From assembly GCF_036507355.1 (NCBI RefSeq), contig NZ_AP027877.1: 64,000 nucleotides of DNA. One strand, given 5' to 3'. Under the pieces are notes generated by a model. The model saw only the letters and a list, made by a program, of their open reading frames with translations, was not told where the DNA came from and did no database searches. Positions within the stretch are counted from its first letter, which is position 1, and each line of letters begins with the position of its first letter. Origin of the DNA: Escherichia coli (lineage in GTDB: Bacteria; Pseudomonadota; Gammaproteobacteria; Enterobacterales; Enterobacteriaceae). The translations under genes and the position numbers were made by a program. This document shows, in pieces, positions 12,832 through 48,029 of this stretch.

Positions 12832-15895
<3,064 letters not shown>

Positions 15896-21479: not shown

Positions 21480-22247
21480 GGTGATGCTGCCAACTTACTG
21501 ATTTAGTGTATGATGGTGTTTTTGAGGTGCTCCAGTGGCTTCTGTTTCTATCAGCTGTCCCTCCTGTTCAGCTACTGACGGGGTGGTGCGTAACGGCAAA
21601 AGCACCGCCGGACATCAGCGCTATCTCTGCTCTCACTGCCGTAAAACATGGCAACTGCAGTTCACTTACACCGCTTCTCAACCCGGTACGCACCAGAAAA
21701 TCATTGATATGGCCATGAATGGCGTTGGATGCCGGGCAACAGCCCGCATTATGGGCGTTGGCCTCAACACGATTTTACGTCACTTAAAAAACTCAGGCCG
21801 CAGTCGGTAACCTCGCGCATACAGCCGGGCAGTGACGTCATCGTCTGCGCGGAAATGGACGAACAGTGGGGCTATGTCGGGGCTAAATCGCGCCAGCGCT
21901 GGCTGTTTTACGCGTATGACAGGCTCCGGAAGACGGTTGTTGCGCACGTATTCGGTGAACGCACGATGGCGACGCTGGGGCGTCTTATGAGCCTGCTGTC
22001 ACCCTTTGACGTGGTGATATGGATGACGGATGGCTGGCCGCTGTATGAATCCCGCCTGAAGGGAAAGCTGCACGTAATCAGCAAGCGATATACGCAGCGA
22101 ATTGAGCGGCATAACCTGAATCTGAGGCAGCACCTGGCACGGCTGGGACGGAAGTCGCTGTCGTTCTCAAAATCGGTGGAGCTGCATGACAAAGTCATCG
22201 GGCATTATCTGAACATAAAACACTATCAATAAGTTGGAGTCATTACC
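21480..22247 (+). mobile_element. insAB: IS1 (768 bp), copy 2, plus orientation; insA 21535..21810, insB' 21729..22232
   Basis: Terminal IRs at both ends; flanking 9-mers differ (gtgccatag vs ctggactta); inverted relative to copy 1. Confidence 0.9.
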
Positions 22248-31100: not shown

Positions 31101-31708
31101 GTCTGGATCATGTATTGAGTTTGACGGAAAACGTCAACATTCTGGTGCTGGATACGCAATGCTATTCCAACACCGGTGGTCAGGCGTCGAAAGCGACACC
31201 GCTGGGTGCAGTAACTAAATTTGGCGAGCACGGCAAACGTAAAGCGCGTAAAGATCTTGGCGTCAGTATGATGATGTACGGTCATGTTTATGTGGCGCAG
31301 ATTTCTCTCGGCGCGCAACTGAACCAGACGGTGAAAGCGATTCAGGAAGCGGAAGCGTATCCGGGGCCATCGCTGATCATCGCTTATAGCCCATGTGAAG
31401 AGCATGGTTACGATCTGGCACTCAGCCATGACCAGATGCGCCAACTCACAGCTACCGGCTTCTGGCCGCTATATCGCTTCGATCCGCGTCGTGCCGATGA
31501 AGGCAAACTGCCGCTGGCGCTGGATTCACGCCCGCCGTCAGAAGCACTGGAAGAAACGTTACTTCACGAGCAACGTTTCCGTCGGCTGAATTCGCAGCAG
31601 CCAGAAGTGGCAGAACAGTTATGGAAAGATGCTGCAGCTGATTTGCAAAAACGCTATGACTTCCTGGCACAAATGGCCGGAAAAGCGGAAAAAAGCAACA
31701 CCGATTAA
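28184..31708 (+). CDS. ydbK: Pyruvate:flavodoxin/ferredoxin oxidoreductase
   Basis: 1174-aa ORF with two 4Fe-4S ferredoxin motifs (CTQCNHCVAACP, CTGCNLCVEVCP) and a TPP-binding region. Confidence 0.9.
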   Translation: MITIDGNGAVASVAFRTSEVIAIYPITPSSTMAEQADAWAGNGLKNVWGDTPRVVEMQSEAGAIATVHGALQTGALSTSFTSSQGLLLMIPTLYKLAGELTPFVLHVAARTVATHALSIFGDHSDVMAVRQTGCAMLCAANVQEAQDFALISHIATLKSRVPFIHFFDGFRTSHEINKIVPLADDTILDLMPQAEIDAHRARALNPEHPVIRGTSANPDTYFQSREATNPWYNAVYDHVEQAMNDFSAATGRQYQPFEYYGHPQAERVIILMGSAIGTCEEVVDELLTRGEKVGVLKVRLYRPFSAKHLLQALPGSVRSVAVLDRTKEPGAQAEPLYLDVMTALAEAFNNGERETLPRVIGGRYGLSSKEFGPDCVLAVFAELNAAKPKARFTVGIYDDVTNLSLPLPENILPNSAKLEALFYGLGSDGSVSATKNNIKIIGNSTPWYAQGYFVYDSKKAGGLTVSHLRVSEQPIRSAYLISQADFVGCHQLQFIDKYQMAERLKPGGIFLLNTPYSADEVWSRLPQEVQAVLNQKKARFYVINAAKIARECGLAARINTVMQMAFFHLTQILPGDSALAELQGAIAKSYSSKGQDLVERNWQALALARESVEEVPLQPVNPHSANRPPVVSDAAPDFVKTVTAAMLAGLGDALPVSALPPDGTWPMGTTRWEKRNIAEEIPIWKEELCTQCNHCVAACPHSAIRAKVVPPEAMENAPASLHSLDVKSRDMRGQKYVLQVAPEDCTGCNLCVEVCPAKDRQNPEIKAINMMSRLEHVEEEKINYDFFLNLPEINRSKLERIDIRTSQLITPLFEYSGACSGCGETPYIKLLTQLYGDRMLIANATGCSSIYGGNLPSTPYTTDANGRGPAWANSLFEDNAEFGLGFRLTVDQHRVRVLRLLDQFADKIPAELLTALKSDATPEVRREQVTALRQQLNDVAEAHELLRDADALVEKSIWLIGGDGWAYDIGFGGLDHVLSLTENVNILVLDTQCYSNTGGQASKATPLGAVTKFGEHGKRKARKDLGVSMMMYGHVYVAQISLGAQLNQTVKAIQEAEAYPGPSLIIAYSPCEEHGYDLALSHDQMRQLTATGFWPLYRFDPRRADEGKLPLALDSRPPSEALEETLLHEQRFRRLNSQQPEVAEQLWKDAAADLQKRYDFLAQMAGKAEKSNTD

Positions 31709-31737
31709 ATGCTCTGGATAAGGATTATCCAATTCTA

Positions 31738-31846
31738 AAAAAAAGCCCGGACGACTGTTCGGGCTTGTCTTTTTATATGTTGGAAAATCAGTGGCAATGC
31801 AATGGCCCAACAGAAAATAAAATCTGTGACAATAAAGGCATATAAC
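31738..31846 (-). ncRNA. micC: MicC small RNA (porin regulator), divergent from ompN
   Basis: Minus strand reads GTTATATGCCTTTATTGTCACAGATTTTATTTTCTGTTGGGCCATTGCATTGCCACTGATTTTCCAACATATAAAAAGACAAGCCCGAACAGTCGTCCGGGCTTTTTTT, matching MicC as I recall it, ending in a hairpin plus T-run. Confidence 0.8.
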
Positions 31847-32073
31847 CCGCGCAGAATAACGTATAGAAAATTAAAAGTATAATTTTTATTTTGTATGTAT
31901 TATCTTCGATACATTCACCAGACTTATTATCATTTCAGAAGAATTATTTGATTAAGGTTTTACTTAAGGCGTAACAAATGATATTTATCGGCTAACTGAA
32001 CTTCTCCTTTAGGATGTTTTCACTCCCCGAAATGGGGATAAAAGGCAAATAAAATAACTAAAGGATTTATTCA

Positions 32074-33207
32074 ATGAAAAGCAAAGTACTGGCACTTTTA
32101 ATTCCTGCCCTGCTCGCCGCAGGTGCTGCACATGCAGCCGAAGTTTATAATAAAGACGGCAACAAATTAGATCTGTATGGCAAAGTTGATGGCCTGCATT
32201 ATTTTTCAGATAATTCGGCGAAAGATGGCGACCAGAGCTATGCGCGTCTGGGTTTTAAAGGCGAAACCCAAATTAACGATCAACTTACTGGCTACGGTCA
32301 ATGGGAATACAATATTCAGGCAAACAACACTGAATCTTCAAAAAACCAGTCATGGACCCGTCTGGCATTTGCCGGACTGAAATTTGCAGATTACGGTTCT
32401 TTCGATTACGGACGTAATTATGGCGTAATGTACGACATCGAAGGCTGGACCGATATGCTGCCTGAATTTGGCGGTGACTCTTATACCAATGCAGACAACT
32501 TTATGACTGGTCGAGCCAATGGCGTCGCGACTTATCGTAATACTGATTTCTTCGGTCTGGTAAATGGTCTGAACTTCGCGGTGCAGTATCAAGGTAACAA
32601 CGAAGGAGCCAGTAATGGTCAGGAAGGCACCAACAACGGACGTGATGTTCGCCATGAAAACGGTGACGGCTGGGGTCTTTCCACAACATATGATTTAGGC
32701 ATGGGCTTTAGCGCTGGTGCGGCATACACCTCTTCTGACCGCACCAATGACCAGGTTAACCATACTGCGGCGGGTGGTGATAAAGCAGACGCGTGGACTG
32801 CTGGGCTAAAATACGATGCTAACAATATTTACCTGGCAACCATGTATTCAGAAACGCGTAATATGACCCCGTTTGGCGACAGCGATTATGCTGTTGCAAA
32901 CAAAACCCAGAACTTTGAAGTCACTGCACAGTACCAGTTTGATTTTGGTCTGCGTCCGGCAGTCTCTTTCCTGATGTCTAAAGGCCGTGACCTGCACGCT
33001 GCCGGTGGTGCAGACAACCCGGCAGGTGTTGATGATAAAGATCTGGTTAAATACGCCGATGTTGGCGCGACTTACTATTTCAATAAAAACATGTCCACTT
33101 ATGTTGACTATAAAATCAACCTGTTGGATGAAGATGACAGTTTCTACGCTGCCAACGGCATCTCTACCGATGATATTGTCGCTTTAGGTCTGGTTTATCA
33201 GTTCTAA
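32074..33207 (+). CDS. ompN: Outer membrane porin (OmpC/OmpF family)
   Basis: 377-aa ORF with signal peptide ([21 protein letters not shown]), porin beta-strand pattern and C-terminal …LVYQF. Confidence 0.85.
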
Positions 33208-33215
33208 ATCCTCCT

Positions 33216-33240
33216 GCCCGCTGTTATGGCGGGCTTTTTC
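33216..33240 (+). terminator. Rho-independent terminator after ompN
   Basis: gcccgc-tgttatg-gcgggc followed by ttttt. Confidence 0.7.
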
Positions 33241-33266
33241 TGCTTATTCTTCCTCCTTTGATCTAA

Positions 33267-33782
<516 letters not shown>

Positions 33783-33789
33783 CACTAAC

Positions 33790-33815
33790 GCCCGCACATT
33801 GCTGCGGGCTTTTTG
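33790..33815 (+). terminator. Rho-independent terminator after uspF
   Basis: gcccgcacattgctgcgggc followed by ttttt. Confidence 0.7.
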
Positions 33816-33957
33816 ATTCATTTCGCAAATGTGCTGACATTTTCCCCTCTAATCCGTACCATACACGCCACAGTTTTTATATCAGATTTCTTATGCTGGG
33901 CGTTCCGGCATGACGCATACTCTTCTGATGCCATATAACGAATTGAGTCGCTTTTAA

Positions 33958-34010
33958 ATGTCGCAAAATCAAGAAATTAGCAAGAAAGAACAATACAACC
34001 TGAACAAGTA
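33958..34010 (+). pseudogene. ttcC: ttcA 5' remnant (ttcC-like) at the int-distal prophage junction
   Basis: atgtcgcaaaatcaagaaattagcaagaaagaacaatacaacctgaacaag ([17 protein letters not shown]) parallels the start of ttcA at 45115 and contains the shared att core. Confidence 0.65.
33982..34007. repeat. Prophage att core, int-distal copy (direct repeat of 45140..45165)
   Basis: About 26 bp, aagaaagaacaatacaacctgaacaa, occurs again within the start of ttcA next to intR. Confidence 0.75.
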
Positions 34011-34248
34011 AGGGCAAAAATCACAACTATCTGACTCATAAGTGTTTTACTTATTTTTCAATGTGTTAAACATCATCAGCGAGAACAATAAACTACGATA
34101 ATCAACTCTTTTTTTGCCCCTTTTTTGCCCCTTTTGCAGCGTTTTGCCCCATTTTTGCCACAAAAAAAAATTCCAAAACGTCTCAATCAAAGTCAAACCA
34201 ACCGCAGCACGTTCTTGCTTAAGACGTGCTGCGGCATAATCCCAATGA

Positions 34249-34833
34249 TTACTCCCTGACAGGGTTCGTAGGCCACTCAATATCAGGTGCAGTTGATGTA
34301 TCAACACGGTTCAGCAACACCCGATACTTTTTCCAGGCTTCCAGCAATGAGGTTTCTTCCTCCGTTGCGATTTCCAGATCCACAGCATCCTGAAGTGGCG
34401 CAATATGCTCACTGGCTACCTGCATCAGGCTGTTTTTTGTTTCTTCCGCCTCTCGGATCCGGAACAGTTTTTCTGCTTCTGCATCTTTCACCCAGGCTGT
34501 GCCGTTCCACTTCTGAAACTCCCCTTCCGGCGATAACCAGGTAACATTTTCCGGTAACGGACCGAGTTCAGAAATAAATAACGCGTCCCCTGACGCTACG
34601 TCATAAACCGTTTTACCCCGATGGTCTTCAACGAGATGCCACGATGCCTCATCACTGTTGAAAACAGCCACGAAGCCTGCCGGAATATCTGGCGGTGCAA
34701 TATCGGTACTGTTTGCTGGCAGACCTGTATGAGGCGGAATATATGCATCACCTTCACCAATAAATTCATTAGTTCCGGCCAGCAGATTATAAATTTTTAT
34801 GGTCCGTGGTTGTTCACTCATTCTGAATGCCAT
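34249..34833 (-). CDS. tfaR: Phage tail fibre assembly protein
   Basis: 194-aa ORF directly downstream of the tail-fibre remnant; Tfa-like sequence; prophage context. Confidence 0.7.
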
Positions 34834-35737
34834 TATGCAAGCCTCACAATGTAGTTAAATGCGATGTTTTTGACGGTGTTTTCCGCGTTACCCGCAGCGT
34901 TAACGGTGATGGTGTGTCCATGTGAGCCAATCGAAACAGAGTGCGTATGAGCACCAATTCCGACAGTATGTGCGTGAGCACCTGCAGATGCAGCTGTGCC
35001 GCTGACACTATGAGTGTGCGCTCCTGCAGCACTTGTATTCACACTGGCCGCAGACACAACCTTATGTACTGACCCATTTTGTGACTACTGGCTGACTGCT
35101 GATGCGCCTGTGACACTATGAGTATGGTTTCCGGCACTTGCGGCTGTACCGCTCACACTGTGTGTATGTGCCCCGGTGTTATTCGTAGATTTAGTGCCGT
35201 AATCAAACGACGATGTGGTTTTCGTACCCAAATCCGTACTGGATGCGCTGGCGCTGTGGGTGTGCGATTTAATACCGTCCTGTTCCTGAGACAATACGGC
35301 CCGACCACTGGCAGGTTTGCCCTTAATCGTCCAGCCACGCATATCAGGGATCACGCCTGACGGATAAGCGGCTGCAAGTTTCGGGTAAGCAGATTTGTCA
35401 AAAGTTTGCCCCTGCATCAGGGCATAGCCAGACGGAACGGTATCTGATGGCCACGGGATTGGTGCACCGACTGGATAAAACTCTGCAGGAGGATGAGCTG
35501 AGGTGTAAAGCTGCGCCCACGGCGACCAGTTTGCGTCGGTCGTATCCCGTCGTGAACGAATAAATGCCGGAGCATGAGCACCGCTTGTACCACTCCAGCC
35601 GATGAGTAACTCACCTTCGCCAACGGCTGTCATCCCTTTCAGGTGAATGATATTTCCATACGCTGTTGGATATCCGTTGTTATACACCTCGTATAACTCA
35701 AGACCTGTTGCCCCCTGCGTATTGTCTGTCAGCGCGG
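34833..35737 (-). pseudogene. stfR: Side tail fibre gene, C-terminal remnant with an internal frame break
   Basis: Two ORFs (35085..35687 and 34833..35057) in different frames with G-A-H-T-H-S-V-S-G-type repeats typical of tail-fibre C-termini; the N-terminal about 800 codons are absent. Confidence 0.65.
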
Positions 35738-36238
35738 TTAGCCGCCATTGTCACCAAGAAAATCCCCGCCCTGCGACATAGCGATGGAAAGAGCAGGTAT
35801 TGATTCGTAGTACGCCAGCATTTCAGAAAGGATCGCATCCAGTTTCCTTATCGGAAAATAGGCCTGGTCATAGTTGCGATCCACCCGAAACTGGAACTCG
35901 TGATAATCATCATCGAGCTGAATGAAGTATTTACACCCGACCAGTTTTGCCTGGTCGAAACAGGCATTACGGGCGTAAAAAATTGAGCGGCGGTCACAGA
36001 AATTATCGGCTTCGTCAAAACGACTGGCGATATCGGCTTTGGAAAACACCAGCACCTGTTCACCAAATTCAGCCATGTACTGATGCCGTGTCTTATCTTC
36101 ATCATCAACAACGATAAAAATTTTCCCGGTATAGCCAGCACGACGCAACGTCCGGTAAGTCAGAACTTTGTCCGGTCGCCCGTGAGTCAGAATAAAGGCG
36201 CAAAAATCATCACGCATATTCCTCCTCCTCACCACCAT
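35738..36238 (-). CDS. Prophage hypothetical protein (ydaY-like); possible nucleotide-sugar transferase-like N-terminal fold
   Basis: 166-aa ORF overlapping the upstream gene by 29 nt; motifs …IFIVVDDED… and …QLDDDY… resemble GT-A/DxD signatures (eyeball inference); abuts the tail-fibre deletion junction. Confidence 0.45.
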
Positions 36239-37001
36239 GCATGATCTCCACCATGCGCTGCGTCATCCGGACAAATCCATTTTCAATAGCCTGCTGATAA
36301 TCAATGATCACCAGCGCCGACTCCTCGAAAAAACACTGAATTTCAGCGGGGGCGTGAGCGTAATAGTCCGCAATTCTGCTGAAATTAAACACCGTGTGAC
36401 GTTCTGCCGCACACAGGAGGAATTTCTCAATATCAGGCTCAAGGGACGCCGAACGTATCCGGCTGATCAGCTCCTGAGTTTTCGTATCGTCGTACAGTTC
36501 ACTGATATCCGGTTTACCGCCCGACGGCTCATAAACAGGCGTATCAATTTTCGTCGTATACGGCTCCTCCTCATTTCCTGTACCGGGCAAAACATCCGTC
36601 AACAGTTCATCAATTTCTGTCGGGATGAAGCCTGTCAGGGAGACATCAAAATCAGCATTGATTAGGTCCGACAGCTCCATCCGCAACAGATCTTCATCCC
36701 AGCCAGCATTCATCGGCAGGCGATTATCTGCCAGGCGGTACGCCTTTTTCTGCTCATCCGTCAGGCCAGACAGAACAATGACCGGAACAGAATCCATTTT
36801 GAGCATTTCAGCCGCCATAACACGACCGTGACCCGCAATAATTTCGCCCTTTTCGTCAATCAGCACCGGATTAGTCCAGCCGAATTGCTTAATACTTTCT
36901 ACCAGTTGTGCCACCTGCTCAGTACTGTGCGTCCTGGCGTTGTGCGCATACGGTGACAATTCTTGTAATGGGCGATAGACTATCTTTAATTTCTCGCTCA
37001 T
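36210..37001 (-). CDS. ParB-like nuclease (ParB N-terminal) domain protein, prophage-encoded (ynaK-like)
   Basis: 263-aa ORF; N-terminus …YRPLQELSPYAHNARTH…LVESIKQFGWTNPVLID…IIAGHGRVMAA…VPVIVL…AYRLADNRL matches the ParB/Srx-fold signature. Confidence 0.6.
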   Translation of the reverse strand: MSEKLKIVYRPLQELSPYAHNARTHSTEQVAQLVESIKQFGWTNPVLIDEKGEIIAGHGRVMAAEMLKMDSVPVIVLSGLTDEQKKAYRLADNRLPMNAGWDEDLLRMELSDLINADFDVSLTGFIPTEIDELLTDVLPGTGNEEEPYTTKIDTPVYEPSGGKPDISELYDDTKTQELISRIRSASLEPDIEKFLLCAAERHTVFNFSRIADYYAHAPAEIQCFFEESALVIIDYQQAIENGFVRMTQRMVEIMHGGEEEEYA

Positions 37002-37138
37002 ACAGCCTTGCTTTATGAATAAAACGCACCCCAGCAGCCAGTGCTACTGGGGACGGAGGTGTTGCTGGTAAAGTTAGGTATTGGATCAATGAGTGAGTCA
37101 ACATAATATTAAACTCACAATTATAAATCAGCCATATA

Positions 37139-38596
37139 TTAGGAGCGCCAAAAAAAACCTGAAAACAATATAATAACAGGATAAATTTCAAGGCGACCAA
37201 GAATCATAGCTATGCACATTAAACATTTTGCAATGTCATTAAGCACTCCGAATGACGATGCAGTAGCCCCAAAACCTAATCCCATATTATTAATACATGC
37301 AGCCACTGTTGCAAATGATGTAAGAAAATCATATCCCATACCATTTAACACCAGTATAAAAAACACCGTGAAGAGAGTATAAAGAAAAAAGAAACTCCAT
37401 ACAGACCTCATTACACGATCTGTAACTATCTTCCCTCCTACATTTACACTCAACAACGCTCTGGGATGAGAAAGCTGATTTATCTCGTGTTTGCTTTGTT
37501 TGAAAAGTATAAGAAATCGAAGTGACTTAATTCCACCACAAGTTGAACCTATACATCCCCCAAAGAAACTTGACAACAGCAAAAACACTATCGTGTGCGT
37601 GGGCCAACTTGCATAATCCTGCGTAGCTAAACCATTATCAGTGAGCATGGAGCTGGCAAGAAAAAACGAATGAATAAAACTTCCATGCAAGTCATACATA
37701 CCTATATGCCAGACCTGGAAAGAGGTAACAATGATCACCCCTAAGGCTATTAACAGAAAGAAACGAAGTTCAATATCTCTGATTAAAGGTTTTATCGTTT
37801 TCCTGCTAATAACAATATACCAAAGAGTGAAGTTGAAAGCCGATAGCAGGGAAAAAGAACCAGCCACCAGCTCAACCAAATAGTTATTAAAATATCCGAT
37901 ACTCTCGCTATGAGTTGAGAAACCACCAAGCGAAACTGTGGAAATCCCGTGACAAATAGCATCAAACAAAGGCATTCCTGCAAGTCTATAACAGACAATA
38001 CAAGCAATACCTAATAAAGAATAAGTTATCCACAGTGTCCGTGACGTATCGGCCAGGCGGGGAGTGAGTTTGTCATCCTTAAATGGCCCCGGCATTTCTG
38101 ACTGATAAAGCTTTGCACCACCAATACCCAATAATGGCAATACAGCAACCGCCAGAACAATAACTCCTAAACCACCTATAAAATTTAACTGTGACCGATA
38201 GTACAAATATGCCCGAGGTAATGAACTAACATCATCAATTACAGTTGCTCCTGTTGTTGTTATTCCAGAAACCCCTTCAAACAGAGCATCAATGAACGTT
38301 AAATTAAGTTCTGAGTCAATCCATAAAGGGAATGCACTAATAACAGAAAACAAAATCCAAAACATTACAATTATAATAAACCCATCACGGGTACGTAATT
38401 GAATGCCAGATTTCTTAGTTGTATACCACGCTCCGCCACCAATGCAAAAAAATATAACGAAAGTTATAAAGAAAACGAACAGGCTTTTTTCTTTATAAAA
38501 CAATGCTACAACCATTGGTGGCAACATTGAAAGACTATAGAGCCAAACCAGGAACCCACACATATGAGTAACAACTCTTACATGAGATGTATTCAT
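37139..38596 (-). CDS. trkG: Trk-system potassium uptake protein (prophage cargo)
   Basis: 485-aa multi-TM TrkH/TrkG-family ORF from the internal ATG (MNTSHVRVVTH…). Confidence 0.8.
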   Translation of the reverse strand: MNTSHVRVVTHMCGFLVWLYSLSMLPPMVVALFYKEKSLFVFFITFVIFFCIGGGAWYTTKKSGIQLRTRDGFIIIVMFWILFSVISAFPLWIDSELNLTFIDALFEGVSGITTTGATVIDDVSSLPRAYLYYRSQLNFIGGLGVIVLAVAVLPLLGIGGAKLYQSEMPGPFKDDKLTPRLADTSRTLWITYSLLGIACIVCYRLAGMPLFDAICHGISTVSLGGFSTHSESIGYFNNYLVELVAGSFSLLSAFNFTLWYIVISRKTIKPLIRDIELRFFLLIALGVIIVTSFQVWHIGMYDLHGSFIHSFFLASSMLTDNGLATQDYASWPTHTIVFLLLSSFFGGCIGSTCGGIKSLRFLILFKQSKHEINQLSHPRALLSVNVGGKIVTDRVMRSVWSFFFLYTLFTVFFILVLNGMGYDFLTSFATVAACINNMGLGFGATASSFGVLNDIAKCLMCIAMILGRLEIYPVIILFSGFFWRS

Positions 38597-38733
38597 ATCT
38601 AAATATTCTTTCAATTATAACCACCTTGCTGCAATATTATGATTATACTGTATAAAATTTAACTCCTCTTAGATCTTACTTCACTGTTCCTTATGAAACA
38701 ATCATCAAAATGAATCATATTGTAGTTAAGATT

Positions 38734-38862
38734 TTACTTTAAACACTGCTCGGTTATGTATTGCTGAGCACCTTCAAGTTGGGCCTGCATCATTACCAGT
38801 CGTTCCCGGAGGGTGAAATAATCCCGTTCAGCGGTGTCTGCCAGTCGGGGGGAGGCTGCATT
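38734..38862 (-). pseudogene. rzpR: 3' ends of phage lysis genes Rz/Rz1 (rzpR/rzoR-like), 5' parts replaced by IS3
   Basis: Minus-strand translation …ADTAERDYFTLRERLVMMQAQLEGAQQYITEQCLK*, with an embedded +1-frame proline-rich Rz1 tail (…QPPPDWQTPLNGIISPSGNDW*). Confidence 0.65.
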
Positions 38863-40120
38863 TGATCCTACCCACGTAATATGGACACAGGCCTAAGCGA
38901 GGTTCTGGTTTTCAAATTGTTCCGGACTGAGGCCGCCACACCAACTGTGCCGCCGCCACCGATTGTAATCACATTCGATATAATTAAACACCGTTGCCCG
39001 CATTATTTCCCGGCTGATAAAGTGTTCTCCATGGATACATTCCACTTTCAGCGAATGAAAGAAGCTTTCCACGCAGGCATTATCGTAGCAGCAACCTTTT
39101 GCGCTCATACTTCCACGCAGATTATGCCGCTTCAGTTGCGCCTGATAATCTGCTGAACAGTACTGGCCTCCACGGTCCGTGTGAACGATAACGTTCCGGG
39201 GCCTCTTACGCCGCCACAGCGCCATCTGCAGGGCATCGCAGGCCAGTTGCGCCGTCATGCGTGGCGACATTGACCAGCCAATAACGGCACGTGACCACAG
39301 GTCAATGACCACTGCCAGATACAGCCAGCCTTCATCTGTACGTAAGTACGTGATGTCTCCTGCCCACTTCTGGTTCGGGCCACTGGCGTAAAAATCCTGC
39401 TCCAACAGATTTTCTGACACAGGCAGGCCGTGTGCGCGGTAGCTGACCGGGCTGAACTTCCGGGAGGCCTTTGCCCTCAGTCCCTGACGGCGCAGGCTTG
39501 CCGCCACGGTTTTTACGTTAAAGGGGTAACCCTGAGCACGCAGTTCATCCGTCAGGCGTGGGGCACCGTAACGCTGTTTTGACCGGGTAAAAGCCGCGAG
39601 GACAACGCTGTCGCAGTGTTGGCGGAACTGCTGACGCGTGCTTATCCTTGTCCGCCGCTGACACCACGTATACCAGCCGCTGCGGGCCACCCGGAGCACG
39701 CGGCACATTGCTTTGATGCTGAACTCAGCCTGATGTTTTTCAATAAAGACATACTTCATTTCAGGCGCTTCGCGAAGTATGTCGCGGCCTTTTGGAGGAT
39801 AGCCAGCTCTTCATCCCGTTCTGCCAGCTGGCGTTTGAGACGTGCAATCTCGGTAGACATCTCCAGTTCACGTTCAGAAGACGTCTGCTGATTTTGCTGT
39901 TTACTGCGCCAGTTGTAGAGCTGTGATTCATACAGGCTGAGTTCACGGGCTGCGGCAGTAACACCGATGCGTTCAGCAAGCTTCAGGGCTTCACTGCGAA
40001 ATTCAGGCGAATGCTGTTTACGGGGTTTTTTACTGGTTGATACTGTTTTTGTCATGTGAGTCACCTCTGACTGAGAGTTTACTCACTTAGCCGCGTGTCC
40101 ACTATTGCTGGGTAAGATCA
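38863..40120 (-). mobile_element. insEF: IS3 (1258 bp); insE/orfA 39756..40055, insF/orfB 38893..39759
   Basis: Terminal IRs TGATCCTACCCACGTAATATGGACAC… and …GTGTCCACTATTGCTGGGTAAGATCA; orfA/orfB transposase pair; flanking triplets differ, so no 3-bp target duplication. Confidence 0.9.
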
Positions 40121-40270
40121 CCGGACGCAACTGAACATCATCAGGACACGCAGCCGCTGGATGCTCAGTCACAGGTAAATTCTGTTGATGCGAAATATCA
40201 GGAACTGCGGGCAGAACTCCATGAAGCCCGGAAAAACATTCCATCAAAAAATCCTGTCGATGCCGATAAA

Positions 40271-41500
40271 TTGCTTGCTGCATCACGTGGTGAATTTGTT
40301 GACGGAATTAGCGACCCGAACGATCCGAAATGGGTAAAGGGGATCCAGACTCGCGATTGTGTGTACCAGAACCAGCCAGAAACGGAAAAAACCAGCCCAG
40401 ATATGAATCAACCTGAGCCAGTAGTGCAACAGGAACCGGAAATAGCCTGCAATGCCTGCGGCCAGACTGGCGGGGATAACTGCCCTGACTGTGGTGCGGT
40501 GATGGGCGACGCAACATACCAGGAAACATTCGATGAAGAGAGTCAGGTTGAAGCTAAGGAAAATGATCCGGAGGAAATGGAAGGCGCTGAACATCCGCAC
40601 AATGAGAATGCTGGCAGCGATCCGCATCGCGATTGCAGTGATGAAACTGGCGAAGTCGCAGATCCCGTAATCGTAGAAGACATAGAGCCAGGTATTTATT
40701 ACGGAATTTCGAATGAGAATTACCACGCGGGTCCCGGTATCAGTAAGTCTCAGCTCGATGACATTGCTGATACTCCGGCACTATATTTGTGGCGTAAAAA
40801 TGCCCCCGTGGACACCACAAAGACAAAAACGCTCGATTTAGGAACTGCTTTCCACTGCCGGGTACTTGAACCGGAAGAATTCAGTAACCGCTTTATCGTA
40901 GCACCTGAATTTAACCGCCGTACAAACGCCGGAAAAGAAGAAGAGAAAGCGTTTCTGATGGAATGCGCAAGCACAGGAAAAACGGTTATCACTGCGGAAG
41001 AAGGCCGGAAAATTGAACTCATGTATCAAAGCGTTATGGCTTTGCCGCTGGGGCAATGGCTTGTTGAAAGCGCCGGACACGCTGAATCATCAATTTACTG
41101 GGAAGATCCTGAAACAGGAATTTTGTGTCGGTGCCGTCCGGACAAAATTATCCCTGAATTTCACTGGATCATGGACGTGAAAACTACGGCGGATATTCAA
41201 CGATTCAAAACCGCTTATTACGACTACCGCTATCACGTTCAGGATGCATTCTACAGTGACGGTTATGAAGCACAGTTTGGAGTGCAGCCAACTTTCGTTT
41301 TTCTGGTTGCCAGCACAACTATTGAATGCGGACGTTATCCGGTTGAAATTTTCATGATGGGCGAAGAAGCAAAACTGGCAGGTCAACAGGAATATCACCG
41401 CAATCTGCGAACCCTGTCTGACTGCCTGAATACCGATGAATGGCCAGCTATTAAGACATTATCACTGCCCCGCTGGGCTAAGGAATATGCAAATGACTAA
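40271..41500 (+). CDS. recE: Exonuclease VIII (RecE) C-terminal portion, N-terminal part of gene missing
   Basis: 409-aa ORF ending …[12 protein letters not shown] just upstream of recT and beginning shortly after the IS3 end; contains the nuclease-domain region. Confidence 0.7.
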
Positions 41501-42302
41501 GCAACCACCAATCGCAAAAGCCGATCTGCAAAAAACTCAGGGAAACCGTGCACCAGCAGCAGTTAAAAATAGCGACGTGATTAGTTTTATTAACCAGCCA
41601 TCAATGAAAGAGCAACTGGCAGCAGCTCTTCCACGCCATATGACGGCTGAACGTATGATCCGTATCGCCACCACAGAAATTCGTAAAGTTCCGGCGTTAG
41701 GAAACTGTGACACTATGAGTTTTGTCAGTGCGATCGTACAGTGTTCACAGCTCGGACTTGAGCCAGGTAGCGCCCTCGGTCATGCATATTTACTGCCTTT
41801 TGGTAATAAAAACGAAAAGAGCGGTAAAAAGAACGTTCAGCTAATCATTGGCTATCGCGGCATGATTGATCTGGCTCGCCGTTCTGGTCAAATCGCCAGC
41901 CTGTCAGCCCGTGTTGTCCGTGAAGGTGACGAGTTTAGCTTCGAATTTGGCCTTGATGAAAAGTTAATACACCGCCCGGGAGAAAACGAAGATGCCCCGG
42001 TTACCCACGTCTATGCTGTCGCAAGACTGAAAGACGGAGGTACTCAGTTTGAAGTTATGACGCGCAAACAGATTGAGCTGGTGCGCAGCCTGAGTAAAGC
42101 TGGTAATAACGGGCCGTGGGTAACTCACTGGGAAGAAATGGCAAAGAAAACGGCTATTCGTCGCCTGTTCAAATATCTGCCCGTATCAATTGAGATCCAG
42201 CGTGCAGTATCAATGGATGAAAAGGAACCACTGACAATCGATCCTGCAGATTCCTCTGTATTAACCGGGGAATACAGTGTAATCGATAATTCAGAGGAAT
42301 AA
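41493..42302 (+). CDS. recT: Single-strand annealing recombinase RecT
   Basis: 269-aa ORF from the internal ATG ([29 protein letters not shown]…), overlapping the recE stop. Confidence 0.85.
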
Positions 42303-42346
42303 TTCAGCCTGGCGGTGTAATGCACCGCCAACTTGAAATATTTTTT

Positions 42347-43330
42347 ATGAGAAAAATTATGAGATATGACAATGTTGGTGATGCTGCCAACTTACTGATT
42401 TAGTGTATGATGGTGTTTTTGAGGTGCTCCAGTGGCTTCTGTTTCTATCAGCTGTCCCTCCTGTTCAGCTACTGACGGGGTGGTGCGTAACGGCAAAAGC
42501 ACCGCCGGACATCAGCGCTATCTCTGCTCTCACTGCCGTAAAACATGGCAACTGCAGTTCACTTACACCGCTTCTCAACCCGGTACGCACCAGAAAATCA
42601 TTGATATGGCCATGAATGGCGTTGGATGCCGGGCAACAGCCCGCATTATGGGCATTGGCCTCAACACGATTTTACGTCACTTAAAAAACTCAGGCCGCAG
42701 TCGGTAACCTCGCGCATACAGCCGGGCAGTGACGTCATCGTCTGCGCGGAAATGGACGAACAGTGGGGCTATGTCGGGGCTAAATCGCGCCAGCGCTGGC
42801 TGTTTTACGCGTATGACAGGCTCCGGAAGACGGTTGTTGCGCACGTATTCGGTGAACGCACGATGGCGACGCTGGGGCGTCTTATGAGCCTGCTGTCACC
42901 CTTTGACGTGGTGATATGGATGACGGATGGCTGGCCGCTGTATGAATCCCGCCTGAAGGGAAAGCTGCACGTAATCAGCAAGCGATATACGCAGCGAATT
43001 GAGCGGCATAACCTGAATCTGAGGCAGCACCTGGCACGGCTGGGACGGAAGTCGCTGTCGTTCTCAAAATCGGTGGAGCTGCATGACAAAGTCATCGGGC
43101 ATTATCTGAACATAAAACACTATCAATAAGTTGGAGTCATTACCGACAATGTTAAACCATGTCCATTTTGTGGTTGTCCATCAGTAACGGTGAAAGCCAT
43201 TTCAGGATATTACCGAGCGAAGTGTAACGGATGCGAATCCCGAACCGGTTATGGTGGAAGTGAAAAAGAAGCACTCGAAAGATGGAATAAACGAACCACT
43301 GGAAATAATAATGGAGGTGTTCATGTATAA
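42347..43330 (+). pseudogene. ralR: lar/ralR (restriction alleviation; type I TA toxin) interrupted by IS1
   Basis: 5' codons (MRKIMRYDNV) at 42347..42376 and the remainder (…KPCPFCGCPSVTVKAISGYYRAKCNGCESRTGYGGSEKEALERWNKRTTGNNNGGVHV*) at 43145..43330, separated by IS1 with a duplicated GACAATGTT. Confidence 0.7.
42377..43144 (+). mobile_element. insAB: IS1 (768 bp), copy 3, simple insertion; insA 42432..42707, insB' 42626..43129
   Basis: Terminal IRs present; perfect 9-bp target-site duplication GACAATGTT at 42368..42376 and 43145..43153. Confidence 0.9.
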
Positions 43331-43532
43331 AATTACCGCCACTATTGAAAAGGAAGGTGGCACTCCTACTAACTGGACAAGATATTCAAAATCTAAACTA
43401 ACGAAATCAGAATGCGAAAAAATGCTCTCAGGTAAAAAAGAAGCAGGCGTTTCCAGAGAGCAGAAAGTAAAACTGATAAATTTTAATTGCGAGAAACTTC
43501 AGTCCTCGAGAATTGCATTGTATTCAAATTAA
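43323..43532 (+). CDS. ydaC: Small prophage protein
   Basis: 69-aa ORF MYKITATIEKEGGTPTNWTRYSKSK… whose start overlaps the lar stop; symbol from position between lar and xisR. Confidence 0.6.
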   Translation: MYKITATIEKEGGTPTNWTRYSKSKLTKSECEKMLSGKKEAGVSREQKVKLINFNCEKLQSSRIALYSN

Positions 43533-43610
43533 AACTTCATAGCTGATTATTAATAATCAACATCGGGCGTCAATTTCAGTCTAACATTGGCGCCTGCCAG
43601 AGGTGATGCG

Positions 43611-43826
43611 ATGGCACAAGTAATCTTTAATGAAGAGTGGATGGTTGAATACGGCCTGATGCTTCGCACTGGTCTGGGGGCCAGACAAATTGAAGCATAC
43701 CGCCAGAACTGTTGGGTGGAGGGCTTCCACTTCAAACGAGTATCTCCTTTAGGTAAGCCAGACAGCAAACGAGGGATTATCTGGTACAACTATCCAAAGA
43801 TAAATCAGTTTATCAAAGACTCATGA
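43611..43826 (+). CDS. xisR: Prophage excisionase
   Basis: 71-aa ORF from the internal ATG ([17 protein letters not shown]…) immediately upstream of the integrase. Confidence 0.7.
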
Positions 43827-43827
43827 T

Positions 43828-45063
43828 ATGTCTAAATTACCAACAGGTGTCGAGATTAGAGGTAGATACATTCGCATCTGGTTCATGTTTCGAGGAAAAC
43901 GATGTCGGGAAACATTAAAAGGCTGGGAGATTACAAACAGTAATATTAAAAAGGCCGGAAATTTAAGAGCGCTGATAGTTCATGAAATAAACTCCGGTGA
44001 ATTTGAGTATTTAAGACGTTTTCCCCAGTCCAGCACTGGGGCAAAAATGGTGACAACGAGAGTCATAAAAACGTTCGGAGAGCTTTGTGATATCTGGACA
44101 AAAATTAAAGAGACAGAGTTAACAACAAACACAATGAAGAAAACGAAATCACAATTAAAAACACTCAGAATAATAATTTGTGAAAGTACCCCGATATCAC
44201 ATATTCGTTATAGCGATATCTTAAACTACCGGAATGAACTGCTGCATGGAGAAACGCTTTACCTGGATAATCCAAGATCCAACAAAAAAGGAAGAACCGT
44301 GCGCACAGTTGATAACTATATCGCCCTGCTCTGTTCGCTGTTGCGTTTTGCGTATCAGTCGGGATTTATATCAACCAAACCATTTGAAGGAGTAAAAAAA
44401 TTACAGCGAAACAGAATAAAGCCTGATCCGTTATCTAAAACAGAATTCAATGCATTAATGGAAAGTGAAAAAGGACAGAGCCAGAACTTGTGGAAATTTG
44501 CCGTTTACTCAGGACTTCGTCACGGGGAACTGGCAGCTCTGGCGTGGGAGGATGTGGATCTCGAAAAGGGAATAGTGAATGTCAGAAGAAACCTGACGAT
44601 ACTTGATATGTTCGGTCCCCCAAAAACAAATGCCGGGATCCGAACAGTAACACTACTGCAGCCTGCTCTTGAAGCACTGAAGGAGCAATACAAACTGACC
44701 GGGCATCATCGCAAAAGCGAAATCACCTTTTATCATCGGGAGTACGGCAGAACCGAAAAGCAAAAACTGCATTTTGTTTTCATGCCCAGGGTGTGTAACG
44801 GAAAACAAAAACCTTATTACTCGGTAAGCAGTTTGGGGGCAAGGTGGAATGCAGCAGTAAAACGTGCTGGTATTCGCCGCCGTAATCCGTACCATACGCG
44901 GCATACTTTTGCCTGCTGGCTGTTGACGGCAGGAGCGAACCCGGCATTTATAGCCAGCCAAATGGGGCATGAAACTGCGCAGATGGTGTATGAAATTTAC
45001 GGTATGTGGATTGATGACATGAACGACGAACAGATAGCCATGTTGAATGCGCGGTTATCGTAG
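43828..45063 (+). CDS. intR: Prophage tyrosine integrase
   Basis: 411-aa ORF with the C-terminal catalytic tyrosine-recombinase region (…HTRHTFACWLLTAGANP…QMGHET…MVYEIY…). Confidence 0.85.
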   Translation: MSKLPTGVEIRGRYIRIWFMFRGKRCRETLKGWEITNSNIKKAGNLRALIVHEINSGEFEYLRRFPQSSTGAKMVTTRVIKTFGELCDIWTKIKETELTTNTMKKTKSQLKTLRIIICESTPISHIRYSDILNYRNELLHGETLYLDNPRSNKKGRTVRTVDNYIALLCSLLRFAYQSGFISTKPFEGVKKLQRNRIKPDPLSKTEFNALMESEKGQSQNLWKFAVYSGLRHGELAALAWEDVDLEKGIVNVRRNLTILDMFGPPKTNAGIRTVTLLQPALEALKEQYKLTGHHRKSEITFYHREYGRTEKQKLHFVFMPRVCNGKQKPYYSVSSLGARWNAAVKRAGIRRRNPYHTRHTFACWLLTAGANPAFIASQMGHETAQMVYEIYGMWIDDMNDEQIAMLNARLS

Positions 45064-45114
45064 TTGCAAAGTTTGCCCCCAATTTGCCCCATTTAGTACC
45101 AGGGAACTGAAATA

Positions 45115-46050
45115 ATGCAAGAAAATCAACAAATTACAAAGAAAGAACAATACAACCTGAACAAATTACAAAAACGCCTGCGTCGTAACGTGGGCGAAGC
45201 CATTGCTGACTTCAATATGATTGAAGAAGGCGATCGCATCATGGTTTGCCTCTCCGGGGGTAAAGACAGCTATACCATGCTGGAGATTCTGCGCAATTTG
45301 CAGCAAAGCGCGCCAATCAATTTTTCGCTGGTGGCTGTTAACCTCGATCAAAAGCAACCGGGCTTCCCGGAACACGTTCTGCCCGAGTATCTTGAAAAGC
45401 TGGGCGTTGAGTACAAGATTGTTGAAGAGAACACTTACGGTATCGTGAAAGAGAAGATTCCAGAGGGCAAAACCACTTGCTCACTGTGTTCTCGGCTACG
45501 TCGCGGTATCCTTTATCGCACCGCAACGGAACTGGGGGCGACGAAGATCGCGCTGGGTCACCATCGTGACGATATCCTGCAAACGCTGTTCTTAAATATG
45601 TTCTACGGCGGCAAGATGAAAGGTATGCCTCCGAAATTGATGAGCGATGATGGCAAACATATCGTGATTCGTCCGCTGGCCTACTGCCGCGAGAAAGATA
45701 TTCAGCGCTTTGCCGATGCAAAAGCGTTCCCGATTATTCCGTGCAACCTGTGCGGTTCACAGCCTAACCTGCAACGTCAGGTGATTGCTGACATGTTGCG
45801 TGACTGGGATAAACGTTATCCGGGGCGTATCGAGACGATGTTCAGCGCGATGCAGAATGTGGTGCCATCGCATCTGTGCGATACCAACCTGTTCGATTTT
45901 AAAGGCATTACCCACGGTTCTGAAGTGGTTAACGGGGGTGATCTGGCGTTTGATCGCGAAGAGATCCCACTACAACCGGCGGGCTGGCAGCCAGAAGAAG
46001 ATGAAAATCAGTTGGATGAGTTACGGCTGAATGTGGTTGAAGTGAAATAA
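45115..46050 (+). CDS. ttcA: tRNA 2-thiocytidine(32) synthetase
   Basis: 311-aa ORF with PP-loop (…[11 protein letters not shown]…) and Cys clusters. Confidence 0.85.
45140..45165. repeat. Prophage att core, int-proximal copy inside the 5' end of ttcA
   Basis: aaagaaagaacaatacaacctgaacaa matches 33982..34007. Confidence 0.75.
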
Positions 46051-46057
46051 CCAGGAT

Positions 46058-46135
46058 AGCGCCCGATGCGCAAGCGTATCGGGCTACTCTTATGGAGGCC
46101 GGATAAGACGCGGCCAGCGTCGCATCCGGCAATCC
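46058..46135. repeat. REP (palindromic unit) elements downstream of ttcA
   Basis: gcccgatgcgcaagcgtatcgggc and gccggataagacgcggccagcgtcgcatccggc palindromes typical of enterobacterial REP. Confidence 0.7.
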
Positions 46136-46178
46136 CGAATAAGATGTTTACTCTTGCACCCGGCAATTCAACATTTCA

Positions 46179-47552
46179 TTATTTTAATAACCGCACCCGG
46201 CACGTTTTTCCTTTAATCTTCCCGCCCTGTAACTGTTTCCATGCTTTATGAGCAACAGCCTGACGGACCGCGACATAGACATGCGCCGGATGCACGGCGA
46301 TTTTGCCAATATCTGCGCCATCAAGCCCGATATCTCCTGTCAGTGCACCTAATACATCACCCGGGCGCATTTTGGCTTTTTTCCCGCCATCGATACACAA
46401 CGTTGCCATTTCTGCTTCCAGCGTCACAATGGAACTATTAGCTGGCGGCGTTTGCCAGTTAAGTTTTATCTGCAACATGTCAGAAATGATATTGGCCCGC
46501 TGTGCTTCTTCCGGAGCACAGAAACTGATCGCCAGACCGCTATTTCCTGCACGAGCTGTACGACCGATGCGATGTACATGAACTTCAGGGTCCCACGCCA
46601 GCTCAAAGTTCACCACCAGCTCAAGCGATTTAATATCCAGACCACGCGCAGCAACATCAGTCGCGACCAGTACACGGGCGCTACCGTTAGCAAAACGTAC
46701 CAGGGTCTGATCGCGATCGCGTTGCTCCAAATCGCCGTGTAATGACAATGCACTTTGCCCTACTTCATTCAGCGCGTCGCAGACAGCCTGGCAATCTTTT
46801 TTGGTATTGCAAAACACCACGCAAGAGGATGGCTGATGCAAGCTTAATAACCGTTGCAACAGAGGAATTTTGCCTTTACTGGATGTCTCATAAAATTGTT
46901 GATCAATGGGTGGCAAAGCATCTGTTGAGTCAATTTCAATCGCCAAAGGATCGCGTTGCACTCGTCCGCTGATTGCAGCGATGGCTTCCGGCCAGGTTGC
47001 TGAAAACAGAAGCGTCTGTCGAGATGCAGGCGCAAAACGGATGACATCATCAATGGCATCGCTAAATCCCATATCCAGCATGCGGTCGGCCTCATCCATC
47101 ACCAAAGTATTCAGCGCATCCAGTGATACCGTGCCTTTTTGCAAGTGATCCAGCAAACGACCCGGCGTTGCCACGATAATATGCGGCGCATGTTGCAACG
47201 AATCACGCTGCATACCGAACGGTTGACCACCGCACAACGTCAAAATTTTGGTATTTGGCAGAAAACGCGCCAGCCGACGCAATTCACCTGCCACCTGATC
47301 CGCCAGTTCACGCGTAGGACACAGCACTAAAGCCTGGGTTTGAAATAGCGACGCATCAATTTGCTGTAACAAGCCGAGGCCAAAAGCCGCCGTTTTGCCG
47401 CTGCCGGTTTTCGCCTGCACGCGAACATCTTTTCCGGCAAGGATCGCCGGAAGCGCGGCGGCCTGCACCGGCGTCATGGTTAAATAACCCAACTCATTAA
47501 GGTTCGTGAGTTGGGCGGGAGGCAAAACATTCAGGGTAGAAAAAGCGGTCAC
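46179..47552 (-). CDS. dbpA: DEAD-box ATP-dependent RNA helicase (23S rRNA specific)
   Basis: 457-aa ORF with Walker A (AKTGSGKT), DEAD box (LVMDEADRML), SAT and HRIGRTAR motifs. Confidence 0.9.
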   Translation of the reverse strand: MTAFSTLNVLPPAQLTNLNELGYLTMTPVQAAALPAILAGKDVRVQAKTGSGKTAAFGLGLLQQIDASLFQTQALVLCPTRELADQVAGELRRLARFLPNTKILTLCGGQPFGMQRDSLQHAPHIIVATPGRLLDHLQKGTVSLDALNTLVMDEADRMLDMGFSDAIDDVIRFAPASRQTLLFSATWPEAIAAISGRVQRDPLAIEIDSTDALPPIDQQFYETSSKGKIPLLQRLLSLHQPSSCVVFCNTKKDCQAVCDALNEVGQSALSLHGDLEQRDRDQTLVRFANGSARVLVATDVAARGLDIKSLELVVNFELAWDPEVHVHRIGRTARAGNSGLAISFCAPEEAQRANIISDMLQIKLNWQTPPANSSIVTLEAEMATLCIDGGKKAKMRPGDVLGALTGDIGLDGADIGKIAVHPAHVYVAVRQAVAHKAWKQLQGGKIKGKTCRVRLLK

Positions 47553-47581
47553 AATCTATTCTCGTGGTCATCGACGCAAAG

Positions 47582-47755
47582 TTAGCAGGCGCGTATCCTC
47601 GCAGATCTACGCTCACGATGCGACAATTTAATCGGTTCTTCATCGGGTGGTGGGTCAGGCATGGGTTGCGGGCGAGGGATCGGATCGGGCACTGGAACAG
47701 GATCGCCAGGAATCGGTTCAGGGACAGGAATTTGCAAATAAATAAGTGTCGTCAT
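47582..47755 (-). CDS. Small proline-rich ORF (57 aa) immediately upstream of dbpA, unidentified
   Basis: Manual translation: MTTLIYLQIPVPEPIPGDPVPVPDPIPRPQPMPDPPPDEEPIKLSHRERRSARIRAC; GGAGGG Shine-Dalgarno about 5 nt upstream of the ATG; ends 30 nt before the dbpA start. Confidence 0.45.
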   Translation of the reverse strand: MTTLIYLQIPVPEPIPGDPVPVPDPIPRPQPMPDPPPDEEPIKLSHRERRSARIRAC

Positions 47756-47812
47756 ATTTCCCTCCGGTCATTGGGTGGACTCTTAAAGGGTAGACGCTGA
47801 TAAATAACAGGC

Positions 47813-47934
47813 AAAAAAAAGCCGACTCATCAAAGTCGGCGTCGTACGAATCAATTGTGCTATGCAGTAATTCAAAAAAGGAAGTAAGACAATATGGAGC
47901 GCAACGCCCATCGCTTGACGTTGCATTCACCTGC
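47813..47934 (-). ncRNA. fnrS: FnrS small RNA
   Basis: Minus strand reads GCAGGTGAATGCAACGTCAAGCGATGGGCGTTGCGCTCCATATTGTCTTACTTCCTTTTTTGAATTACTGCATAGCACAATTGATTCGTACGACGCCGACTTTGATGAGTCGGCTTTTTTTT, matching FnrS as I recall it, with terminal hairpin and T-run. Confidence 0.8.
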
Positions 47935-47969
47935 AAGAGAGATATTGCCCTGAATGGGTAGAGAGTTTA

Positions 47970-47983
47970 TTGACTTCGCTCAA
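47970..47983. promoter_or_regulatory. FNR-type binding site (TTGAC-N4-CTCAA) centred about 42 bp upstream of fnrS
   Basis: ttgacttcgctcaa palindrome resembling the FNR consensus TTGAT-N4-ATCAA, at the class II activation distance. Confidence 0.6.
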
Positions 47984-48029
47984 ACTTTGCGGCGTTTTTG
48001 TATACAGACAGCCGGAAAAATTGCTTTTG

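Follow-up and report, generated by a model that had tools for sequence, protein, structure and literature searches.

A rare, strongly reduced form of the Rac cryptic prophage at ttcA in Escherichia coli

The element and its ends

A 64,000-bp stretch of the Escherichia coli contig NZ_AP027877.1 (assembly GCF_036507355.1), hereafter the window, carries at positions 33958–45164 an element inserted in the 5′ end of ttcA. From left to right, it consists of a displaced ttcA fragment (ttcC), two tail-fiber genes, a glycosyltransferase fragment, a ParB_N-domain gene, trkG, a lysis-gene remnant, an IS3 insertion sequence (IS), the 3′ half of recE, recT, ralR split by an IS1, rcbA, xisR and intR. Rac, integrated at ttcA, is a textbook example of a cryptic prophage and was reported at this site in 69% of a set of 638 E. 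coli/Shigella genomes (PMC6379469); rac-like prophages span complete to fragmentary forms (PMC4632033). The element in the window is Rac, residing at its usual position within the 5′ part of ttcA, where it has shrunk to 11.2 kb, compared with 23 kb in K-12 and ~41 kb in NCTC9064. The features that define its ends are as follows.

33958–34011, plus strand: ttcC, the displaced original 5′ end of ttcA, 17 codons and a stop; aligns to K-12 ttcC
33982–34007, plus strand: attachment site (att) core, uspF-side copy, 26 bp; exact match, identical to the K-12 Rac core
34008–34234, no strand: Rac end arm, non-coding, presumed integrase/excisionase arm-site region; contiguous with K-12 Rac right-end DNA
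45115–46050, plus strand: ttcA, intact hybrid gene, 311 residues; 99.7% amino acid identity to K-12 TtcA
45139–45164, plus strand: att core, ttcA-side copy, in ttcA codons 9–17; exact match, flanks 99.6% identical to K-12

The 26-bp core (AAGAAAGAACAATACAACCTGAACAA) is present in exactly two copies in the window, where none is expected by chance, and neither differs from the two att cores that K-12 MG1655 Rac carries. They are embedded in a 43-nt stretch of imperfect homology (93% identity, 33965–34007 vs 45122–45164). The distance from core to core is 11,157 bp, and the non-IS part of the element amounts to 9,131 bp. The first eight codons of ttcA and its promoter are supplied by the prophage, so the protein begins with MQENQQIT, vs MSQNQEIS in the displaced ttcC. 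The flanking genes (ompN–uspF on one side and dbpA–zntB on the other) are those of K-12. Next to ttcA lie the IntR-type tyrosine integrase (411 residues) and XisR (71 residues), both 100% identical to the K-12 proteins and carrying the matching Pfam domains, preceded by the early-left set recE–recT–ralR–rcbA, in which recT and rcbA are intact, recE is truncated at its 5′ end, ralR is split by the IS1 and the RalA small RNA is intact.

The element does not have the makeup of a functional temperate phage: of the modules for immunity, replication, lysis, head and tail, it retains only an Rz/Rz1 stub, tfa and an stf pseudogene. Nor does it resemble a phage satellite or an island of the phage-inducible chromosomal island type, as it contains neither primase or replication genes nor capsid-redirecting genes, and all of its non-IS segments are collinear with Rac at 99–100% identity and bounded by deletion scars. 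Nothing found contradicts the Rac identity, and its refutation is no longer realistic. The element itself is known, and it is its state of decay that is rare, confined to a small clade or strain cluster. As an instance of prophage decay, it is ordinary apart from being unusually small.

An earlier reading of the window from its letters alone (the original prediction) had proposed a strongly reduced, Rac-like prophage of about 11 kb, bounded by an att direct repeat in ttcA, and alignment to K-12 and NCTC9064 bears it out. The left copy of the repeat was placed correctly and the right one, given as 45140–45165, was off by 1 bp. The prediction was also correct in that the integrase and excisionase are kept and the immunity, kil, sieB and replication genes are gone: racR, ydaS–W, kilR, sieB, racC and all head and tail genes are lacking.

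Collinearity with K-12 and NCTC9064

Local blastn comparison with K-12, relative to which the window is reversed, resolves the element into the following blocks.

Up to 34234: ompN–uspF–ttcC and 227 bp of the Rac end
34271–35477: tfaR and the 3′ end of stfR, only 89% identical
36748–38862: ynaK–trkG–rzpR′, 99.9% identical
40120–42376: recE codons 408–866, recT and the first 17 nt of ralR, 99.9% identical
43145–48000: the remainder of ralR, rcbA, xisR, intR, ttcA and dbpA, 99.4% identical

The segment 35478–36747 has no K-12 counterpart and matches fuller Rac-type prophages. One of these, the ~41-kb Rac of NCTC9064 (NZ_LR134315.1, about 2,401,000–2,442,200), aligns to the window continuously over 31001–35744 (99.2%), a match that includes the end arm, and over 35741–37078, 37074–38862, 40120–42376 and 43145–46897 (99.3–100%). 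Outside the tail-fiber end, the DNA between the att cores is 99.9–100% identical to the Rac of either K-12 or NCTC9064. Among the prophages available, the latter serves best as a stand-in for the ancestor. At the protein level, IntR, XisR, RcbA, RecT and TrkG are 100% identical to K-12 and RecE residues 408–866 are 99.8% identical. The five genes with fully identical products, all intact, are listed below.

37142–38596, minus strand: trkG, potassium transporter, 485 residues; TrkH domain
41493–42302, plus strand: recT, 269 residues
43323–43532, plus strand: rcbA (ydaC); DUF1187
43611–43826, plus strand: xisR, excisionase; DUF1233 excisionase domain
43828–45063, plus strand: intR, tyrosine integrase, 411 residues; Arm-DNA-bind_2 and Phage_integrase domains

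A deletion joins stf to a glycosyltransferase gene

At the tail-fiber end, collinearity with NCTC9064 is broken at a single point, which lies among the following features.

34249–34833, minus strand: tfa, tail-fiber assembly, intact, 194 residues; Caudo_TAP (E = 3e-45), 95% amino acid identity to K-12 TfaR
34833–35744, minus strand: stf′ pseudogene, the last ~304 of ~1008 codons; Collar and Phage_fiber domains, NCTC9064 match
35741–35744, no strand: deletion junction between stf′ and the glycosyltransferase fragment, with a GCCG overlap; ~23.2 kb gone relative to NCTC9064
35738–36217, minus strand: truncated gene of the TET-associated glycosyltransferase (TAGT) family, 159–166 of ~310 codons; PF20691 (E = 9e-24)
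36210–37001, minus strand: ParB_N-domain protein, full-length, 263 residues; ParB_N, phrog_620 (E = 1e-90)

The NCTC9064 match (locus L004; L numbers denote the loci compared) stops at 35744 and the match to L006/AR_0061 begins at 35741, which places the junction within the four shared bases. Missing are the 5′ part of stf, lom, J, the tail genes, ydaY, the head genes, the terminase and the 3′ half of the glycosyltransferase gene. The stf remnant additionally carries a nonsense change (TGG to TAG at 35086), an in-frame stop found only in the window when it is compared with L009, L010 and NCTC9064. Within the coding sequence of tfa (34292–34490, minus strand) there is a match to the Rfam IS009 RNA family (226 bits).

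The absence of pinR, ynaE and ynaM beside tfa was considered as a further deletion scar and rejected: the near-complete NCTC9064 Rac has the same layout, with tfa next to the prophage end (99.7% identity), so the missing pinR and ynaE are an allelic difference. The sequence downstream of tfa is also common to other lambdoid prophages.

In NCTC9064, the glycosyltransferase gene has 310 codons, and the full-length homolog matches phrog_842 (6e-104), a family labeled "beta-glucosyl-HMC-alpha-glucosyltransferase". In fuller Rac-type prophages, the ParB_N gene is followed by the 310-residue glycosyltransferase just upstream of the terminase (L006 7415–9131; L001 6635–8351), and the two may constitute a DNA-modification module. 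K-12 YnaK (87 residues) aligns through residues 1–86 to the 263-residue ParB_N protein at 98.8% identity, which marks YnaK as its N-terminal stump, and the K-12 gene can now be read as what is left of a ParB_N gene whose partner in fuller Rac-type phages is a glycosyltransferase. In RefSeq, the glycosyltransferase is annotated as hypothetical and the ynaK-like ParB gene is flagged as an incomplete pseudogene (about 258 bp).

An IS3 element marks a second deletion that truncates recE

The second break in collinearity coincides with the IS3.

38617–38862, minus strand: 3′ remnant of Rz/Rz1 (rzpR/rzoR); K-12 match down to K-12 locus position 14517, corresponding to a lysis gene in NCTC9064
38863–40120, transposase on the minus strand: IS3, 1,258 bp, ends read from the sequence; 99.9% identical to the IS3 of AR_0061
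40121–41500, plus strand: recE′, codons 408–866 only (tblastn, 99.8% identity to K-12 RecE); PDDEXK DUF3799 domain

For the Rz/Rz1 remnant, the relatives give a Phage_lysis call. Across the IS3, coordinates in the K-12 locus (L003) jump from 14517 to 7166, i.e. a deletion of 7,350 bp (~7.8 kb relative to NCTC9064) that spans the 5′ part of rzpR, ydaW–V–U–T–S, racR, ydaG, ydaF, sieB, kilR, ydaE, racC and recE codons 1–407. The bases flanking the IS3 are ATT and CCG, so there is no 3-bp target duplication. Both the native promoter region upstream and a start codon at the junction are missing from the recE remnant, the first possible starts being a TTG at 40271 (150 nt in) and an ATG at ~40403. 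A simple promoter scan detected no sigma-70-like site on the plus strand in 39,900–40,500, i.e. none facing recE′ from the IS3.

Other IS3 insertions are found in the same lysis genes. Strain 23CRST025 carries an independent, simple IS3 insertion in Rz/Rz1, 43 bp away from the site in the window and flanked by a 3-bp duplication (ATA; L016 6390–7650), and in strains A23 and USDA-ARS-USMARC-51688 an IS3 occupies the window's Rz site or one no more than about 6 bp away. This clustering suggests a local target preference of IS3. Towards the right end of the window there is a second IS3-family transposase reading frame (270 residues, 62823–63635), with only about 70% DNA identity to the IS3.

An IS1 insertion splits ralR

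The third lesion affects the toxin gene of the RalR–RalA pair.

42360–43330, plus strand: ralR, toxin gene, split by the IS1 after codon 6; RalR residues 4–64 at 43145–43327
42377–43144, plus strand: IS1, 768 bp; 9-bp target duplication GACAATGTT at 42368–42376 and 43145–43153
43329–43507, minus strand: RalA antitoxin small RNA, intact; Rfam RF02694, 225 bits vs a gathering score of 170

In ralR, the K-12 match stops at 42376 and picks up again at 43145, the two parts overlapping by 9 bp, a pattern that identifies a simple IS1 insertion. With RalA intact and ralR split, the small RNA is an orphan antitoxin. The IS1 is 99.7–99.9% identical to two further copies in the window (18479–19246 and 21480–22247), which are inverted with respect to each other and bracket a 757-residue fragment of a BigA-like autotransporter adhesin (19220–21493, minus strand), so that this adhesin pseudogene piece and its IS1 pair look like a composite transposon. 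Three IS1 copies and an IS3 within 64 kb had raised the suspicion of a Shigella origin, which was rejected because proteins exactly matching those of the window (BED22553.1, BED22554.1 and BED22559.1) belong to an E. coli chromosome of 4,643,937 bp.

A four-step model for the decay of the element

Most genes named in the original prediction (intR, xisR, ydaC, ralR′, recT, recE′, trkG and tfa/stf′) are found as described. Its "ParB-like pair" is one full-length ParB_N protein and one TAGT-family glycosyltransferase fragment, and the junction that it located at an stf/ydaY boundary is that of stf′ with the glycosyltransferase fragment, ydaY being absent. It was right to place an IS3 at a deletion junction, where collinearity indeed breaks. 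Its statement that RecET is kept holds for recT and fails for recE, which has lost codons 1–407 and its upstream promoter region and has no promoter-like site supplied by the IS3. It recognized ralR (lar′) as broken and missed the cause, the 768-bp IS1 with its 9-bp target duplication.

The lesions and gene states, like the identity of the element, are directly visible. Starting from a fuller Rac-type prophage such as that of NCTC9064, four lesions account for the whole structure. An illegitimate deletion of ~23 kb between the 3′ end of stf and the 5′ half of the glycosyltransferase gene, where microhomology amounts to no more than 4 bp (GCCG), removed all head, tail and terminase genes. An IS3-associated deletion of 7.4–7.8 kb took part of the lysis cassette and the late-regulation, replication and immunity genes, together with sieB, kilR, racC and recE codons 1–407. 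The IS1 inserted into ralR with its 9-bp duplication, and the remnant of stf acquired a nonsense mutation. The genes left are unable to make a phage. The main value of this reconstruction lies in annotation, as a base-level account of how one copy of Rac shrank.

Distribution among E. coli genomes

The survey set comprised 5,426 complete RefSeq E. coli genomes, and a segment was counted at a query coverage of at least 80%. The whole architecture occurs in none of them; AR_0061 is the only genome that covers at least 80% of the region, but its structure differs. The stf′/glycosyltransferase junction is likewise absent from the complete genomes (0/5,426) and recurs in six other assemblies or read sets. 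In these, stf′ is uninterrupted, which indicates that the junction is real and inherited and that the nonsense change came later. The Rz′/IS3 junction reaches the coverage threshold in 21 genomes (six of the eight matches listed are single-piece). The IS3/recE′ junction is found in three, where the opposite IS3 flank is different, and identical 409- and 365-residue RecE′ products are encoded on 30 and 57 contigs, respectively. The IS1/ralR junction was found in none of the genomes.

In strain B27, one of the 21 genomes with the Rz′/IS3 junction, the trkG–Rz′–IS3 junction is present in a prophage near ybhB, with a lysozyme fragment across the IS3 (L008 4427–7518). Its occurrence at this second chromosomal site implies that the trkG block moves between lambdoid prophages.

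Retention of individual Rac segments, in a crude survey whose counts are not specific to the locus, was as follows.

intR–att–ttcA junction: 2,907 of 5,426
recE 3′ part (recE-C) and recT: 1,728 of 5,426
kilR–ydaE–racC–recE 5′ part (recE-N): 1,681 of 5,426
trkG: 1,538 of 5,426

Prospects for excision

Both att cores, the adjacent arms and an intact integrase and excisionase are present, and the ttcA-side arm has a single mismatch to K-12 in the 300 bp leftward. K-12 Rac excises by the action of IntR and XisR, whereupon four N-terminal residues of TtcA change (PMC4632033); ttcC and ttcA of the window differ by the same four amino acids. Since IntR and XisR are identical to the proteins shown by experiment to excise K-12 Rac and the cores and arms are in place, excision as a non-replicating circle is plausible; the element would then be lost and the ancestral TtcA N-terminus restored. 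If it does occur, the element would be a convenient minimal IntR/XisR substrate that is free of the toxic Rac genes.

Passive decay or selected retention

The better and more economical description of the element is neutral, IS-assisted decay within a small clade, and we infer that trkG, recT and recE′ were retained passively. The original prediction saw instead a snapshot of domestication, i.e. of selective retention, a view that the survey does not back: recE-C with recT is hardly more common than kilR through recE-N, and trkG is present in about half as many genomes as the intR–ttcA junction.

Domestication would mean that the host keeps useful functions (potassium uptake by TrkG, recombination by the RecE nuclease and RecT, and a switch of the TtcA N-terminus through IntR/XisR excision) while selection purges the toxic kilR, ydaS/T and ralR. 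It is unlikely, though it agrees with the gene content, in which the toxic or lethal Rac genes are all lost or broken and trkG, recT, rcbA, xisR and intR survive intact with full identity to K-12. It also agrees with the deletions in at least four other E. coli genomes, which arose independently, end in the N-terminal, dispensable half of recE and spare recT as well as the nuclease domain (L001 11142–12512; L015 7216–9530; L016 7889–9769; L007 7923–10530; the agents being IS1, IS3 or no IS). What is retained of RecE includes the C-terminal nuclease domain, which is enough for RecET recombination. Apart from the survey counts, the lack of a start codon at the junction, of a native promoter region and of any promoter-like site from the IS3 argues against domestication, as does the rarity of the architecture, whose stf′/glycosyltransferase junction is missing from every complete genome. 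At 99.9% nucleotide identity to K-12, substitutions are too few for a test of purifying selection by the ratio of nonsynonymous to synonymous changes (dN/dS).

A more specific version, in which the minimal Rac of the window and of related strains is a selected, excisable mini-island, has only a slim chance of being correct. Here, repeated, independent truncations would always spare the RecE nuclease domain, RecT and TrkG through their use by the host, one such use being RecE′/RecT recombination with incoming lambdoid phages, and IntR/XisR-driven loss would switch the TtcA N-terminus.

Slimmer again is the chance that the IS3 activates a recombinase in the manner of sbcA mutations, which in K-12 switch on RecE and RecT. 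Outward transcription from the IS3 at recE codon 408 would then turn on the truncated RecE together with RecT. The IS3 does lie directly upstream of recE′–recT, the same junction is inherited in several genomes, and IS3-family elements can create hybrid promoters. However, the IS3 transposase genes are directed away from recE′, the promoter scan of this region was negative, and the first in-frame start is the TTG located 150 nt past the junction.

An assembly artefact, in which a collapse or mis-join at multi-copy IS3 and IS1 or at the internal repeats of stf produced the small size, has practically no probability, given the six independent assemblies that reproduce the stf′/glycosyltransferase junction, the three complete genomes and tens of contigs with the IS3/recE′ junction, the 21 genomes with at least 80% coverage of the Rz′/IS3 junction, the perfect 9-bp target duplication of the IS1, and the placement of the products BED22553.1, BED22554.1 and BED22559.1 on one 4,643,937-bp contig, presumably a complete chromosome.

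Several points nevertheless weigh against parts of the preferred account. The recurrent ends of independent Rac deletions in the 5′ half of recE could hint at selection for the RecE nuclease domain and RecT. The IS3-associated deletion could have arisen either by adjacent deletion from one IS3 or by recombination between two copies, and a search for the reciprocal junctions that a simple insertion of IS3 at either the Rz or the recE site predicts gave no exact match, the nearest being IS3 copies a few bp or 43 bp away in Rz. As to excision, there are about 11 differences from K-12 across the 227 bp of the uspF-side arm (~10 substitutions and one indel), the presumed arm-site region.

Comparison with known Rac prophages

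The Rac of K-12 MG1655 (b1345–b1375, 23,060 bp) shares with the window the ttcA site, the 26-bp att core and the ttcC remnant. It contains racC, ydaE, kilR, sieB, ydaF/G, racR and ydaS–W, as well as ydaY, ynaA, lomR, IS5, pinR, ynaE, ynaM and the 5′ half of recE, all of which the window lacks. The IS elements are an IS3 and an IS1 here and an IS5 in K-12, and whereas the ynaK stump of K-12 is fused to ydaY, the window has the full-length ParB_N gene followed by the glycosyltransferase fragment. The two also differ in their tfa/stf alleles.

The Rac of NCTC9064 occupies the same site, has tfa beside its end and lacks pinR and ynaE. Unlike the element in the window, it still has complete sets of head, tail, terminase and lysis genes along with kilR, sieB and a full-length recE, and it has an IS5 of its own between ynaK and trkG. 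Relative to it, the window is missing about 31 kb and has gained the IS3, the IS1 and the stf nonsense change.

The closest parallels in terms of decay are 23CRST025, JNQH497, AR_0061 and Ec1120. All four keep the same core (trkG … recE′–recT–ralR–rcbA–xisR–intR), with deletions that end in the 5′ half of recE, and none of them contains the stf′/glycosyltransferase junction. Their routes to the truncated recE are different: the junction is holin′/recE′ and IS-free in AR_0061, lysozyme′–IS1–recE′ in JNQH497, and rzpD′/recE′ and again IS-free in 23CRST025, where the IS3 in Rz is separate. Only Ec1120 shares the exact IS3/recE′ junction with the window.

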